Virus record (IMG/VR): IMGVR_UViG_2541047892_000001
Reading direction: 5' to 3' (one strand)
Source of the DNA: a virus
Taxonomy: Duplodnaviria; Heunggongvirae; Uroviricota; Caudoviricetes
Length of the DNA: 35,657 nucleotides
The stretch's first letter is position 1; each line of letters opens with the position of its first letter. Below are positions 11,151-30,862 of this stretch, in pieces. The notes below the pieces were generated by a model. That model worked only from the letters and a program-made list of their open reading frames with translations, searched no databases and was not told the origin of the DNA. The translations under genes and the position numbers were made by a program.

Positions 11151-11672
11151 TCAGCCCCCGATATTGATCCGATAGTCAGTCAGTTGATCAACGCCACCGA
11201 CGCGGAAGATGTTGGCCAGATAGTCCAGTTGCAGCAACTCTTCACCATCCAGTACCTGTCTGATATACGTGCAGGTGAAGCTACTGGAGAACTCGGCGTT
11301 CTCGTGCTGTTTAAACGTCCCCAGCGGGTTCTTCTTGAACATAATTGTCAGGAAGGTGACCAGCGGGATTTCGTCGATCAGCCCCTGCGAGCTGTAGCGC
11401 TGGACGCTGGAGCGACACTGCAGCGCCAGCGACTTGTACGGGTTCGCGGCAGACAGCATCGCATCGCGGTAAAAGCTGTTCCATTTGATTTCGCCTTCCA
11501 GTTTGTCAAAACCAGCCGGGAGTTCCACCTTACCCACCATCCCCAGTGCCTTGTGTTCCTGCATAATCATGGAGACATCGGGGAGTTTAACCTCCTCAGC
11601 CCGTCCCAGCAGGTTAGTACCATCCAGATAGATGTTGGCATTCGTGATTCGGTTTATCTCAATCTTTGACAT
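11151..11672 (-). CDS. Major tail tube protein (P2 FII / Mu M-like)
   Basis: 173 aa; N-terminal MSKIEINRITNANIYLDGTNLLGRAEEVKLP is typical of contractile-tail tube proteins; immediately follows the sheath. Confidence 0.9.
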   Translation of the reverse strand: MSKIEINRITNANIYLDGTNLLGRAEEVKLPDVSMIMQEHKALGMVGKVELPAGFDKLEGEIKWNSFYRDAMLSAANPYKSLALQCRSSVQRYSSQGLIDEIPLVTFLTIMFKKNPLGTFKQHENAEFSSSFTCTYIRQVLDGEELLQLDYLANIFRVGGVDQLTDYRINIGG

Positions 11673-26122: not shown

Positions 26123-27109
26123 CTATTTCAAAATATAACGATATTTACTATCTGGAGTGTTTTGTTGGTCAAGTAATAGAGCTCTACATGGGGCGGTCAA
26201 AACACGGGCATAACGACCATCGGGGTTTATGTTGATGTAACAAGTTTTCCCTTTAACACCATAAGATTCAGGTATTATTGCCTGTGTAGACACCGTGAAT
26301 TTAAGGGTATGCCAGCCCGATTTTTGCTTGTAGCTTGAAACCGAATGGAAATCATCTGAGTACTTATTTAACCCTGGAAACATGCTGCGTAATGCTGGGA
26401 TGGAATCTTCTATTATTTTGTCGTTGGTTTTAATGTTAAAAACGCTGGTTTCAGTAGATGCTACTGCTTTAGCATTTCCCCATTTACCAGCGAACACAAT
26501 CATTCCCACGAAAAATATTGCGACAAGAACTAACGCTCCCCCCAACACTACTACATGAGGCTTCCGGCTTCTGGTTGGTACAGTCGCGACTGATTTTGCC
26601 CCGCTGTCCGATGGAGGTGATAGAGTTTTACTCTCATCACGAATATTCAGCAGATCATCAAAATAACCAAACACAGCCTGCAACTGCTCTTTGTCCAGGC
26701 CTTTAAGATGGGTTGTACCGAAATGCTTCAGACAGTATCTGTCACGGTCAAGACGATACCTAGGGTCAGTAAGCACCATTATTTTGCTGACCAGAAGATT
26801 ACAGTCCTTCATATTCTGGATCTGTTGTGCATATCTCTGGAGGATCTCAACCGCACCATGATAATCAGCCGCAGTCATTTCATTAACTGTTTTGGTATTA
26901 AGTTTCGTGTGGATCGTCATCCATAGTTCGCGCTTACTTTCCCCCAGATCAACCAATTCATCCATCAATCTGTGTAAATCGCGTTTTTGCAGCAACGAAA
27001 TTGGTTGCTGGGCAGAGGGAAGTATGTCAGCAGAATAGTTATGAATGGTAACATCACCGCTGACAACGTTACCCACATCTCCGTTAACTGTTTGCTTCTC
27101 TTTACTCAT
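26123..27109 (-). CDS. Hypothetical bitopic membrane protein (328 aa): N-terminal Gly-rich motif, about 190-aa cytoplasmic domain, one TM, about 110-aa C-terminal domain
   Basis: TM helix HVVVLGGALVLVAIFFVGMIVFAG; start codon overlaps the repressor stop (ATGA); AT-rich. Confidence 0.65.
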   Translation of the reverse strand: MSKEKQTVNGDVGNVVSGDVTIHNYSADILPSAQQPISLLQKRDLHRLMDELVDLGESKRELWMTIHTKLNTKTVNEMTAADYHGAVEILQRYAQQIQNMKDCNLLVSKIMVLTDPRYRLDRDRYCLKHFGTTHLKGLDKEQLQAVFGYFDDLLNIRDESKTLSPPSDSGAKSVATVPTRSRKPHVVVLGGALVLVAIFFVGMIVFAGKWGNAKAVASTETSVFNIKTNDKIIEDSIPALRSMFPGLNKYSDDFHSVSSYKQKSGWHTLKFTVSTQAIIPESYGVKGKTCYININPDGRYARVLTAPCRALLLDQQNTPDSKYRYILK

Positions 27110-27567
27110 TTTCTCTTTGTATTTTTGTTCATTATTCCACCTGTTCCTATGGTTACGTTACCTTTGATAACATTCCCCAGAACATCTCCATGAATAACCT
27201 GTTCCGCCCGTTCTCTGGAGGAGCCAGTCGTCAATGCCGACAAAACTGAACCTTTGACTTGTAACGGTGCTTGCCGGTAGTGCTGAAGTAACTCCATTTC
27301 ATCACGTGATAAAGTTATACCTGATGATTCCCCAGTAAGAATGAACTGTACGTTGGCCCCAATTCTTGCAAAGGCTGCAAGTAACTCACCTCCGGGAACT
27401 GCAACCCCTCGTTCATATTTCCCCCACATTTCTCTTGAAACGCCACAAAGGGCTGCTACTTCAGCCTGCTTGAGTGATAACCGCGAACGCTCAGCTTTGA
27501 ACCGCGACGCGCAAAGAGAATCAAAATTCACATAAACCTCATTGACAATGAGAACAATGGTTCTCAT
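27106..27567 (-). CDS. XRE-family HTH transcriptional repressor (putative prophage repressor)
   Basis: HTH_XRE signature LKQAEVAALCGVSREMWGKYERG; divergent from the early operon; alternative GTG start at 27531 with a GAGG site would leave the operator and early promoter outside the coding region. Confidence 0.8.
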   Translation of the reverse strand: MRTIVLIVNEVYVNFDSLCASRFKAERSRLSLKQAEVAALCGVSREMWGKYERGVAVPGGELLAAFARIGANVQFILTGESSGITLSRDEMELLQHYRQAPLQVKGSVLSALTTGSSRERAEQVIHGDVLGNVIKGNVTIGTGGIMNKNTKRK

Positions 27568-27570
27568 AAT
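27542..27570 (+). promoter_or_regulatory. Early promoter: -35 TTGACA, 17-bp spacer, -10 CATAAT, with an operator-like inverted repeat in the spacer
   Basis: TTGACA at 27542..27547 and CATAAT at 27565..27570; spacer contains ATGAGAAC-aatg-GTTCTCAT (27548..27567); 48 nt upstream of the first early gene. Confidence 0.55.
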
Positions 27571-27617
27571 CTATCACATATAAAACAAACATCATTGCAT
27601 CAACAAAGGAGACAACA

Positions 27618-27806
27618 ATGACTTCCGAACAAGTTAAAACTCTCTTCCGTCAGCGTGGTATCACGTTTACCCGCTGGGCCGAAGAACACGGCTACAGCCG
27701 CAATGAGGTCTATCGTGTTCTCAATGGACAGACCAAAGCTCGTTACGGCAAAGCCCATGAAATTGCCGTAAAGCTGGGATTAAAACCCACGTCAAATGCG
27801 GCATAA
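27618..27806 (+). CDS. Small Ner/Cro-like HTH DNA-binding protein (first early gene)
   Basis: 62 aa; AAGGAG 6 nt upstream; layout resembles Ner/Nlp-type regulators (weak, from memory). Confidence 0.65.
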   Translation: MTSEQVKTLFRQRGITFTRWAEEHGYSRNEVYRVLNGQTKARYGKAHEIAVKLGLKPTSNAA

Positions 27807-27858
27807 ATTTTCCATATATGCAACAGGTTATCACATATTGCAAAAATGGAAATGTGAC

Positions 27859-28167
27859 ATGAGTAAAGTAAATATCTCCAGTTCCGGGACCCGCATCCTA
27901 CGTGTACTCAAAGCTCTACGCGGTCACTCTCTGAACGGTGTTTCTAACGGTGAACTGGCATCAGCCCTAGATGAGTCCCCGGCGAACATCAATCGAGCAC
28001 TCAATACCCTTATCGAAGAGGGACTAGCCCTGAAACTGGAAAACGGGCGTTTCGCACCAGGCATCCAGTTGCTGCAGATCGCCATGGCCCACAGTAACGA
28101 GATGGCACGTGCACAGGATCGCATTAACGAAATCAACCAACGTGTTATTTCAGGTAGTCGTTTGTAA
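27859..28167 (+). CDS. Winged-helix DNA-binding protein
   Basis: ILRVLKALRGH...GVSNGELASALDESPANINRALNTLIEEGL is HTH-like; start uncertain (ATG 27859, or 27796 overlapping the previous gene). Confidence 0.55.
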   Translation: MSKVNISSSGTRILRVLKALRGHSLNGVSNGELASALDESPANINRALNTLIEEGLALKLENGRFAPGIQLLQIAMAHSNEMARAQDRINEINQRVISGSRL

Positions 28168-28177
28168 GGAGTAATCA

Positions 28178-29089
28178 ATGGGACGCACCAAATCACCGGT
28201 TAGCACTGAACTGAACGTCGAGGTACCGCTGTCGGATGATCTCAATGTCAGTCTAAACGCCATGACACAGCATCGCATGGAAATCATGCAACAGTTCGGC
28301 GATGGTCTGCCCTATGAGCGCGATCGTGTTGTCCATGAGGCACGCTTTTATATGGCACAGAGCGCTGAGGCCATGCTGGAGGCAGGTAAGCGGCTGATAA
28401 TCCTTAAGGAAAATGAACCACACGGGGAGTTTATAAAGATTCTTGAAAGTGAGTTGGGGCTGGCATACCGGACATCTGTGAGAATGATGCAAGCATCGAC
28501 AAAATACTTATCCCCGGCGCTGAAACCAAATGTGCCAACGTTGGCACATTTGGGAAAAGCCAAACTTTTCGAATTAATGACAGAAGACGACGAAGAGCTT
28601 GCCGAACTGGCCGACGGCGGCACAGTTGCCGGCATGACGCTTGACGATGTTGATCGCATGTCAGTACGTGAATTGCGTCAGGCCCTGCGTGAAGCGCGCG
28701 AAACCAACGCAGCACAACAGCGTGTTCTCGCCGATAAAAATGAAAAAATAGACTCACTCTCCACCAGACTGGAGAAGAAATCCCGTATTCAGCCACCTGA
28801 GCCTGATGAAGAGGTGAAGAAACTGCGGGCGGAAGTGACCGCGTTAGCGGTTGAGGCGGAATCTGCCATCGCCGTTCGACTGTCCAGCGCTTTTGAGACA
28901 CTGTGCGCATATTGTGCTGAAAACATGATTGATACCCCCAGAGACTTCATGGCAGGCCTGGTCTGTCAACTGGAAAGCACAGCGCGTAGCCTGCGCTCCA
29001 CATTTGACCTGCCGGACGAGCCAACAGGCGATGTCGCGCCTTCATGGCTGACTGAGCCGACGCCACAGATTAACGGGCTGGAGGCATAA
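28178..29089 (+). CDS. Hypothetical early protein (303 aa) with central coiled coil
   Basis: AAGGAG 6 nt upstream of ATG; lies between the regulators and the transposase; no family recognised. Confidence 0.6.
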   Translation: MGRTKSPVSTELNVEVPLSDDLNVSLNAMTQHRMEIMQQFGDGLPYERDRVVHEARFYMAQSAEAMLEAGKRLIILKENEPHGEFIKILESELGLAYRTSVRMMQASTKYLSPALKPNVPTLAHLGKAKLFELMTEDDEELAELADGGTVAGMTLDDVDRMSVRELRQALREARETNAAQQRVLADKNEKIDSLSTRLEKKSRIQPPEPDEEVKKLRAEVTALAVEAESAIAVRLSSAFETLCAYCAENMIDTPRDFMAGLVCQLESTARSLRSTFDLPDEPTGDVAPSWLTEPTPQINGLEA

Positions 29090-29092
29090 CCA

Positions 29093-30862
29093 ATGAATGC
29101 TGCCCTGACTGAACGACTGGTTTATGTCGCCCGCGCGGCACGTGACGCGGGGCATGGTAAACGCGGTGCAATATACGACGCTGCCTGTGCTGAACTTGGC
29201 ATGTCCCGCGCCACTCTGCTGCGCAGGCTGAAGGAGGTATCTGTGACTGATAAACGCAAAAAACGCGCCGATGCCGGGCGCAGCGCCCTGACCCGCGACG
29301 AAGCCGCGCTGATATCTGCCACACTGCGTGAGGCCACCCGCAAGAACGGTAAGCGTCTCTATTCCATCGCAGATGCAGTGGAAACCCTGCGGGCTAACGG
29401 CTTTATCTCCGCAGGCAGAACAGATGAAACCACCGGTGAGTTTTTCCCGTTGTCCGAAGATGCCATCAGTCGTGCCTTGCGTAACTATGGCCTGCACCCG
29501 GAACAACTGGATGCCCCTGCGCCGCATACCGAAGTGGCCAGTCTGCATCCCAATCACGTCTGGCAGATTGATGCCTCGCTCTGCACGCTTTACTACCTGA
29601 GCAATGGACACAAAGGGCTGCAGGTGATGGACAGCGCGAAGTTCTACAAGAATAAACCCGCTAACCTTGCCCGTATCGCCAGTGACCGCGTGTGGAGTTA
29701 CGAGATTACCGACCATGCCAGCGGCTGGATTTACGTTGAGTATGTGACGGGTGCGGAATCCGGTGAGAACCTGTGTTCTGTGCTTATCAACGCCATGCAG
29801 GAGCGTGGCGGCGCAGACGTGCTGCACGGCGTGCCGAAAATACTCTATCTCGACCCCGGCTCGGCAAACACCGCGGGTATGACGAAAAACATGTGCCGCT
29901 CACTGGGCATCGACCTGATAGCGCACAAGCCGCATAACGCCCGCGCCACCGGACAGGTGGAAAAGGCGCGTGACATTATCGAACGCAAGCTGGAGCCGGG
30001 TCTGAAATTCCGGCCGGTTCACAGTCTGGAAGAACTCAACGCGCTGGCCGCGAAATGGCGTAGCCACTTTAACGCAACAGCTGTTCACAGCCGCCACGGT
30101 AAAACCCGCACGGATATCTGGCTGAAGATTACTGCTGAGCAGCTGAAAAAAGCGCCTTCCGTTGAGGTATGCCGTGAACTGGCTGTGGCGACACCAGAAC
30201 TCCGCAAAGTCACGCCAAAACTTCGTGTCTCGTTCCGGGGCACTGAATTTGACGTATCAACGGTACCGGGCGTACTGGTTGGTGAAAAACTGATGATTAC
30301 CCGTAACCCATGGCGCAGCGATGTGGCACAGGTGGTTCTGACCGGTGAGGACGGCCACGAGACGTTCTTCCTGGTCGAAGAGGTCAGAAAGAACGAGTTT
30401 GGCTTTGCTGAAGGCGCGGCGGTATTTGGCGAAAGTTACAAAGCCCTGCCGGAAACACCGGCACAGACGGCGGCAAAAGAAACCGAAGCGCTGGTCACCG
30501 GTACAGACAACGCCGCAGATGCAGCTGCCGCACGCAAGGCGAAGGCGCTGCCGTTCGGCGGGCGGCTTGACCCGTATAAACATATTGATGACGCCACACT
30601 TCCGGCCTGTATACCGAAGCGCGGTCAGGTCTCTGATGTACGCAGACCGCGCACTGAACAACGTCCCATGACTCATGTGGAGGCCGCGAAAGCCCTGCGC
30701 GATAAGTTCAGCGCCGACGGCCTTACCTGGACGCCGGAACATTACCGCCAGTTAACGGCACAGTACCCGGACGGCGTACCGGAAGCCGCACTGGATGAAG
30801 TAATGGCCACGCTGACCACGCCGGCCCGCAGCAGCGTTATCAGCATTGTTAACGGCAACTGA
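29093..30862 (+). CDS. DDE (rve/integrase-core type) transposase
   Basis: 589 aa; candidate catalytic residues in HVWQIDAS, LYLDPGSANT and a downstream Glu; GGAGG 8 nt upstream; followed by an AAA+ ATPase; no resemblance to the MuA N-terminus. Confidence 0.8.
   Translation: MNAALTERLVYVARAARDAGHGKRGAIYDAACAELGMSRATLLRRLKEVSVTDKRKKRADAGRSALTRDEAALISATLREATRKNGKRLYSIADAVETLRANGFISAGRTDETTGEFFPLSEDAISRALRNYGLHPEQLDAPAPHTEVASLHPNHVWQIDASLCTLYYLSNGHKGLQVMDSAKFYKNKPANLARIASDRVWSYEITDHASGWIYVEYVTGAESGENLCSVLINAMQERGGADVLHGVPKILYLDPGSANTAGMTKNMCRSLGIDLIAHKPHNARATGQVEKARDIIERKLEPGLKFRPVHSLEELNALAAKWRSHFNATAVHSRHGKTRTDIWLKITAEQLKKAPSVEVCRELAVATPELRKVTPKLRVSFRGTEFDVSTVPGVLVGEKLMITRNPWRSDVAQVVLTGEDGHETFFLVEEVRKNEFGFAEGAAVFGESYKALPETPAQTAAKETEALVTGTDNAADAAAARKAKALPFGGRLDPYKHIDDATLPACIPKRGQVSDVRRPRTEQRPMTHVEAAKALRDKFSADGLTWTPEHYRQLTAQYPDGVPEAALDEVMATLTTPARSSVISIVNGN

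Follow-up and report, generated by a model that had tools for sequence, protein, structure and literature searches.

A proposed immunity switch in a B3/BcepMu-type transposable prophage of Escherichia coli, with a palindromic operator in the early promoter and a likely start-codon correction for the repressor

The DNA analysed is a stretch of 35,657 nucleotides (nt) from a virus of the class Caudoviricetes (IMG/VR record IMGVR_UViG_2541047892_000001), referred to below as the window, and the part considered here, from position 27,110 to 27,806, holds a repressor gene read leftward and a ner-like early gene read rightward. It is the immunity and early-control region of a B3/BcepMu-type transposable E. 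coli prophage. We are confident, on the evidence of the sequence and its relatives, that the region would work as an immunity switch, in which an XRE/P22 C2-type repressor occludes the early promoter (pE) by binding a palindromic operator (O1) in the promoter spacer, a second site (O2) probably takes part, and synthesis of the repressor protein begins with the GTG at 27531. Coordinates of the features are given in Table 1.

Predicted early promoter pE and putative operator O1

The hexamers TTGACA and CATAAT support a strong sigma-70 promoter, pE, predicted to read rightward into the early operon. The first matches the -35 consensus at all six bases, the second departs from TATAAT at one base but keeps the A in second and the T in sixth place, and the spacer of 17 nt is within the 17 +/- 1 nt usual for such promoters. 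A rightward TTGACA, a 17-bp spacer and CATAAT had been proposed in an earlier note on this DNA; these elements proved exact to the base, and their layout recurs in about 40 homologous loci, in Pseudomonas phage B3 and in the heteroimmune E. coli phage PhiKM. A consensus scan of positions 26900-28300 returned pE (11/12) as the sole promoter-like site. When both strands of the whole 35.6-kb window were scanned, pE alone reached at least 11/12, against an expectation of 0.27 from first-order Markov resampling. At least one match of at least 11/12 occurred in 24% of the resamplings, so that the match alone is only modestly improbable and is suggestive, not decisive; what gives it weight is that it lies between two divergent genes and that relatives have kept it.

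Homologs were sampled as 107 proteins, of which the closest were aligned, and as 80 genomic loci, which were anchored on the start codon of the repressor. In about 40 of these loci the plus strand presents the same order: the reverse-complemented start codon, 8-10 nt containing a reverse-complemented Shine-Dalgarno (SD) sequence (CCCC or CCTC), a TTGACA-like hexamer, a 17-nt spacer bearing a palindrome, a -10 element and CACA. A CACA or CAC motif was again found 5-8 nt past the -10 element in relatives. The hosts comprise Enterobacterales, Pseudomonas, Burkholderiales, Orbaceae, Francisella, Contendobacter, Microbulbifer, Haemophilus and Methylococcales, and the arrangement of start codon, -35, palindrome-bearing spacer and -10 is shared with B3 and PhiKM.

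O1 occupies the pE spacer and the first three bases of the -10 element. No second copy of its palindrome was found in the window at up to three mismatches (0.06 expected). In E. coli strain A24, O1 differs from that of the window solely in the central spacer, where AATG is replaced by AATA, and these central bases are presumably not contacted by the repressor.

The palindrome differs among loci; its class changes together with the recognition helix of the repressor next to it and is independent of the ner-like gene. Repressors with the helix GVSRE(M/I)WG(K/R)YERG are paired with (A/T)GAGAAC-n4-GTTCTC(A/T), and those with G(I/V)(K/Q)RETWSRYE(S/A)G are paired with TGTGAT-n6-ATCACA (Serratia, Pectobacterium, Gilliamella/Orbaceae and a metagenome-assembled genome of Methylococcales). 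WSKY variants are accompanied by a GTGAAC half-site, and other palindromes again stand beside the repressors of Izhakiella, Enterobacter soli, B3-like phages and PhiKM. The elements, their conservation and this covariation with the repressor are direct observations. Because the palindrome tracks the recognition helix and not the ner-like gene, O1 is supported as the operator of the divergent repressor and as part of an exchangeable immunity cassette. The suggestion, also made in the earlier note, that the inverted repeat in the spacer is a repressor operator thus gains from comparison with relatives, in that the palindrome is perfect, recurs in the same layout and covaries with the helix predicted to read it.

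A natural variant of the operator was encountered in protein P0001, the representative of a cluster of 168 members and a long-form gene call. Its sequence begins with MGT, not MRT, at the equivalent of window positions 27562-27564, and corresponds to an O1 right half-site of GTTCCCAT in place of GTTCTCAT; the variant is also present in loci L027 and L029.

Table 1. Features of the immunity and early-control region, with positions in the window
Feature	Position	Strand	Remarks
Repressor gene, short form, 141 amino acids	27106-27531	-	XRE/P22 C2-type helix-turn-helix (HTH) and helical C-terminal region
Longest repressor open reading frame (ORF), long form, 153 amino acids	27106-27567	-	RefSeq/PGAP annotation WP_001259267.1
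O2, putative second operator, AAGAGAAT-CAAA-ATTCACAT	27514-27533		12/16 to the O1 half-sites; 4-nt centre; covers the GTG start and codons 2-6
Proposed true start, GTG	27529-27531	-	Codon 13 of the long ORF; from start alignment of homologs
Repressor SD sequence, GAGG	27537-27540	-	5 nt before GTG; abuts the pE -35; GGGG/GAGG/GGTG in the same place in relatives
pE -35 hexamer, TTGACA	27542-27547	+	6/6 consensus match; TTGACA-like hexamers in the same place in about 40 homologous loci
pE spacer	27548-27564	+	17 nt
O1, putative primary operator, ATGAGAAC-AATG-GTTCTCAT	27548-27567		Perfect palindrome (8+8); about -29 to -10 of pE
pE -10 hexamer, CATAAT	27565-27570	+	5/6 match to TATAAT; CATAAT/CAAAAT/CATACT kept with the 17-nt spacer across loci
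Annotated (RefSeq) ATG	27565-27567	-	Complement of CAT in CATAAT; inside O1 and the -10; probably not used
Block ATAATCTATCACATATA	27566-27582		Holds the pE start region; first 16 nt ATAATCTATCAC(A/G)TAT
Predicted pE transcription start, CACA motif	27576-27578	+	6-8 nt past the -10; from the spacing rule
pE leader direct repeat, CATCA-TTG-CATCA	27590-27602		Between the predicted start and the ner-like SD
SD sequence of the ner-like gene, AAGGAG	27606-27611	+	
First early gene, ner/Cro-like HTH protein, 62 amino acids	27618-27806	+	phrog_925; homologous to B3 ORF17

Repressor start codon and the O2 site

The repressor was matched only by XRE-type HTH families. In Pfam, residues 22-68 of the long form scored 30.5 bits for HTH_31 (cut-off 27) and 23 for HTH_3 (cut-off 23). 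The P22 C2 chains (N-terminal DNA-binding domain) matched at E 1e-4, the PHROG annotation is transcriptional regulator, and the product is 36% identical to B3 ORF18 (E 2e-15). A Mu repressor/MuA-type N-terminal domain was not matched. The S24 peptidase domain PF00717 gave no Pfam match in the window repressor and was present in only a few distant homologs (P0068, P0069 and P0078).

As the earlier note had remarked, the longest ORF of the repressor starts inside the -10 element, at the complement of the CAT of CATAAT, and the in-frame GTG at 27531, with its GAGG, was there held to be the more plausible start. Comparison of homologs bears this out. Most of the homologous proteins begin with M-NFDSLCA..., the M being aligned to V13 of the long ORF. 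In all 25 of the closest loci a GTG, ATG or TTG is aligned to the GTG at 27531, 8 or 9 codons before an invariant arginine (Arg22), and in 14 of them a stop codon shortly before it leaves no other in-frame start. For B3 ORF18 the equivalent GTG, 10 nt from TTGACA, is the annotated start. The DNA-binding domain of P22 C2 is in register with the short form, its residue 5 falling on residue 6 there (residue 18 of the long form). With high confidence, then, the start of the repressor is taken to be GTG 27531.

This start codon lies within O2, a second site resembling O1 whose centre is 34 bp from that of O1. On balance, O2 is probably a second operator. When the 70 nt to the left of the -35 element were searched for the best match to each locus's own O1, the match was 32-35 bp away in 26 of 29 loci, and in the Francisella locus, where the gap is longer, it was 43 bp away, a difference of one helical turn. 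At the O2 position, class-B loci have a site that is itself class-B-like. Matches between O1 and O2 averaged 11-12/16 within the same class and 7.3-9.4 across classes, the background of matches of at least 11/16 being about 0.1% per position. Further specificity classes, represented by L008, L015, L034, L036, L055, L061, L065 and PhiKM, also gave their best match at 32-34 bp. The codons within the site point the same way: the N-terminal Ser-Leu is encoded by TCT-CTT in 17 of 18 class-A loci, while elsewhere in the same genes TCT makes up 21% of serine and CTT 14% of leucine codons. In the sole exception, L028, the codons are TCG-CTA and no O2 was detected.

Several results count against O2. 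Within the window alone, 3.5 sites of at least 12/16 are expected and five were seen, which places O2 within chance expectation. An automated scan for O2 at 33 bp found nothing in B3, L050, L078 or L081, and the site counted by eye in B3, 11/18 at 33 bp, is weak. The spacing of 33-34 bp comes only approximately to an integral number of helical turns. It is possible, though we hold it to be doubtful, that O2 is not an operator and that its likeness to O1 and the frozen TCT-CTT reflect chance or a translation-initiation constraint for an A/U-rich, unstructured start region. Synonymous constraint is common in 5' coding regions, and both the unexceptional 12/16 score in the window and the weak B3 match suit this explanation. 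However, TCA, AGT, TTA and CTA are equally A/T-rich and would have served such a constraint as well as the codons fixed in the 17 loci, and neither chance nor initiation accounts readily for the class-B-like site in the same place in class-B loci, the recurrence at 32-34 bp in further classes or the joint absence of codons and site in L028.

If O2 is an operator, as we favour, the position of the start codon in its right half-site may explain the predominance of GTG (about 24 GTG, 10 ATG and one TTG in the first 35 loci). We lean slightly toward extending this reading to the repressor family as a whole (E. coli, Pectobacterium, Pseudomonas/B3, Gilliamella, Burkholderiales and others). The start codon and first six codons would then also spell out a second operator, the unusual GTG predominance and the conserved N-terminal peptide NF(D/S)SL would be dictated by the half-sites TGTGAA / AAGAGAA and not by protein function, and a dual-coded autoregulatory operator would stand 33-34 bp from the promoter operator (43 bp in the one Francisella locus). 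A real O2 would be a neat case of an operator that constrains a start codon and N-terminal codons.

No third operator site was found in the intergenic region. Two operator-like sites in coding regions of the window were dropped as extra copies, their number being within chance expectation: GTGAGAAC-CTGT-GTTCTGTG in the transposase gene (29763-29782; 12/16) and TGGAGAAC-TCGGC-GTTCTCGT (11285-11305; 13/16, with a 5-nt spacer).

Other readings of the palindrome and of the upstream ATG

It is improbable that the ner/Cro-like protein of the early operon binds the palindrome, instead of or alongside the repressor, as with lambda Cro and cI. Genes for both HTH proteins flank O1, and operators shared in this way are the norm in lambdoid phages. 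Against this, the ner-like proteins of the window and PhiKM are 87% identical, yet their palindromes are entirely different (GCTCATAATTATGAGC in the PhiKM spacer) and their repressors are 36% identical; leftward, the DNA of the two phages is homologous only as far as window position 27566, exactly at the -10 element. Likewise, the Pectobacterium loci L006 and L017 have a common right-hand (ner) side but different O1 classes. The operator therefore segregates with the repressor, evidence against an operator that serves the Cro-like protein as well, as in lambda. In PhiKM (L004, PQ738613), an XRE-type repressor ORF of 118 amino acids, unannotated in the deposited record, was located on the minus strand at 2103-2459, in the same place as the repressor of the window and beside TTGATA-17(GCTCATAATTATGAGC)-AATAAT.

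Better candidates for Ner sites lie within the ner module itself. Eight enteric loci of differing immunity have the block ATAATCTATCAC(A/G)TAT in common, PhiKM departing from it by a further mismatch (CTAACAC), and this block, or the 10-mer TATCACATAT that it surrounds, is a candidate binding site of an early regulator, either the ner-like or the IclR-like protein. There are two exact copies of TATCACATAT, at 27572-27581, just past the pE -10, and at 27829-27838, between the ner-like and IclR-like genes; in PhiKM the downstream copy is exact and the upstream copy is one base off (TAACACATAT). Its interpretation as a third repressor half-site was rejected, as the 10-mer is kept irrespective of repressor class.

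Very improbable, in turn, is a real start at ATG 27567, which would yield the 153-residue repressor, perhaps from a leaderless or nearly leaderless mRNA as for lambda cI from PRM. This start gives the longest ORF, was called by PGAP and has ATG, a better start codon than GTG; in addition, the frame is open beyond the GTG position in a few relatives (P0005, P0015, P0013 and P0014), whose extra residues, MRT(I/L)..LIVN, resemble those of the window. The extension is, however, a reverse reading of O1 and the -35 element, IVN being ATTGTCAAT, the reverse complement of ATTGACAAT, so its apparent conservation is explained at the level of the DNA. Among the 25 closest loci, only the window has an in-frame start at this position. 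The equivalent codon stands directly before a stop in Pectobacterium, Brenneria and Lonsdalea (ATG-TGA or TTG-TGA), and in Pseudomonas and others the equivalent ATG is out of frame because the distance from -35 to start, which varies between 8 and 10 nt among loci, is 9 rather than 10 nt. No SD sequence was found ahead of 27567, nor a -10 element suitably placed for a leaderless start, and the alignments with Pfam HTH families and P22 C2 begin only at residues 18-22 of the long form. This ATG belongs to the operator and -10 sequence (..ATTATGAGAAC..) and, as we read the sequence, is these elements read backwards on the opposite strand. Use of ATG 27567 would give an N-terminal peptide of MRTIVLIVNEVY..., and the preferred GTG start would give MNFDSLCA...

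It is hardly credible that the inverted repeat is no protein operator but works in RNA, folding in the leader of the repressor mRNA to tune translation or stability. In a read-through leader the minus-strand RNA does fold at -14.3 kcal/mol (z = -2.3), with an 8-bp hairpin just upstream of the SD sequence, a point that tells against a protein operator, and the lysogenic repressor transcript of the B3 relative Fc02 starts far enough upstream that it would include the region (PMC9936078), but the arms are kept as sequence over distant genera and do not covary freely, they track amino acids of the recognition helix, and they keep a constant place with respect to the -35 and -10 elements of the opposite strand. 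An Rfam search returned no family, and only a single sub-threshold chance match to a miRNA.

Proposed switch and comparison with known phages

The genes to the right encode, in order, the ner-like protein, an IclR-type HTH protein, a DUF3102 protein and a DDE (rve) transposase of 589 amino acids, while the rest of the large ORFs in the left of the window are on the minus strand. The intergenic region between the repressor GTG and the ner-like ATG at 27618 is 86 bp long. Several E. coli chromosomes match the region at 100% identity, the identical prophage being carried for example by strains B7A, ATCC 43896 and GABEEC10, and partial matches were found in 611 of 5,426 complete E. coli genomes. 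Its nearest phage relative is PhiKM (Bcepmuvirus), with B3 more distant, and PGAP names one gene under the match a BcepMu_gp16 family phage-derived protein. The assignment to the B3/BcepMu type follows the divergent B3 ORF18-like repressor and B3 ORF17-like ner, the early operon with DUF3102 and DDE transposase genes, the 8-10 nt from the start codon to the -35 of the opposite strand, and the palindrome in the 17-nt spacer.

In the switch proposed here, pE would start transcription near 27577 and drive the early operon of ner-like, IclR-like, DUF3102 and DDE transposase genes. The divergent repressor, translated as 141 amino acids and presumably a dimer, would bind the 20-bp O1, and since O1 fills the spacer and overlaps the -10 element, the bound repressor would exclude RNA polymerase in the lysogen. 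The weaker O2, about three helical turns to the left, would probably serve cooperative binding, negative autoregulation as a roadblock for repressor transcription, or both. From this arrangement we infer repressor binding, polymerase occlusion, cooperativity, autoregulation and the transcription starts.

A consensus scan of the minus strand over 26900-28300 found no leftward promoter, and a distal promoter like pC1 of Fc02 was not identified here. The best proximal candidate is an extended -10, TGaTAGATT, the reverse complement of 27568-27576, which is invariant in the eight enteric loci of differing immunity types. Were it used, transcription would start near 27561, inside O1, and would give a 30-nt leader with the SD sequence, leaving ATG 27567 outside the mRNA. 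The leftward promoters picked by eye (TGaTAGATT; GATTAT, which overlaps the pE -10; and TTGATG-15-TATATG) are not asserted, as none is kept across the wider family. RNA-seq of Fc02 points to a lysogenic repressor transcript from the distal promoter pC1, antisense to ner and gene 10, and a proximal pC2 predicted there overlaps pE (PMC9936078). Either a distal promoter of the Fc02 type or a proximal one is possible in the window.

Some general points weigh against the proposed switch. A convincing leftward promoter was not found, and the sampled loci are phylogenetically related, so that the counts given above do not represent independent events. In the searchable literature on B3/BcepMu/D3112-type repressors, those of B3 and Fc02 included, and on E. 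coli BcepMu-like prophages, no operator or start site was found to have been mapped by experiment, and experiments on this phage or its close relatives were likewise not found.

Among known phages, the closest parallel is B3 (Beetrevirus), which has the homologous repressor ORF18 and ner-like ORF17, predicted promoters pE and pC2, and DUF3102 and transposase genes downstream, and in which a GTG start is likewise followed by 10 nt, TTGACA, a 17-nt spacer with the palindrome GGTGCAATATTTGGCACC and a -10 element. B3 differs in operator sequence and recognition helix and has extra genes between ner and the IclR-like gene, whereas the window has E. coli as host and BcepMu-like late genes. RNA-seq of Fc02 showed that pE fires into ner on derepression (PMC9936078).

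With P22 C2, 434 cI and lambda cI the window shares an XRE-type HTH repressor, palindromic operators over the early rightward promoter, divergent repressor and cro-like genes, and heteroimmune relatives with swapped repressor-plus-operator cassettes. Unlike those of lambda and P22, its repressor lacks the S24 (LexA-like) autocleavage domain. Where those phages have three sites spaced by 23-24 bp, the window has two, spaced by 33-34 bp; the main operator is placed wholly in the -35/-10 spacer, and the second, putative site lies over the start codon of the repressor itself. The Cro-like protein apparently does not share the operator, and a tripartite OR as in lambdoid phages was not found.

A further comparison is with the c repressor, Ner and the promoters Pe and Pc of phage Mu. 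The window resembles Mu as a transposable phage with divergent repressor and ner genes and an early promoter that leads into ner and then the transposase, and its Ner probably has its own sites, as in Mu. It differs in that the repressor is not of the Mu c/MuA-N-terminal type, there is no O1-O3/IHF arrangement and the intergenic region measures 86 bp. In P22, the Arc operator at Pant is located between the -35 and -10 elements. The window shares with it a symmetric operator in the promoter spacer and mutually exclusive binding of repressor and RNA polymerase, the latter as proposed here; the ribbon-helix-helix fold of Arc and its regulatory role are unrelated.

Some further observations were made on the flanking genes. 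The direct repeat in the pE leader is kept from E. coli to Pseudomonas/B3 (as CATCTTTGCATCA/T). An ORF of 52 amino acids antisense to the ner-like gene (27600-27758, minus strand) is open in PhiKM too; it recalls the antisense olg genes of Fc02 (PMC9936078) and may merely follow from conservation of ner. To the left, the repressor gene overlaps by ATGA a gene (26123-27109, minus strand; phrog_10002) for a predicted membrane protein of 328 amino acids. The C-terminal tail of the repressor, HGDVLGNVIKGNVTIGTG (27106-27160, minus strand), resembles the N-terminus of that product, NGDVGNVVSGDVTIHN (27040-27109, minus strand), and among homologs the tail GDVLGNVIKGNV is also found on otherwise different N-terminal HTH domains.

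The switch is of an ordinary kind for phages, though unusually clean, and it does not overturn the current understanding of phage switches; what it adds is a likely annotation correction and a plausible second operator in a start codon. WP_001259267.1 and its relatives, which occur in hundreds of E. coli genomes, most likely carry an artefactual N-terminus of 12 residues, made of operator and promoter read backwards, and a correct start and known operators are needed for expressing the repressor, building reporters and predicting superinfection immunity. The residues of the recognition helix set against the bases of the half-sites form a small natural specificity code for an XRE-type repressor, and the cassette of operator and repressor would define how immunity is divided into types among BcepMu/B3-like prophages, a family that is widespread but unstudied.

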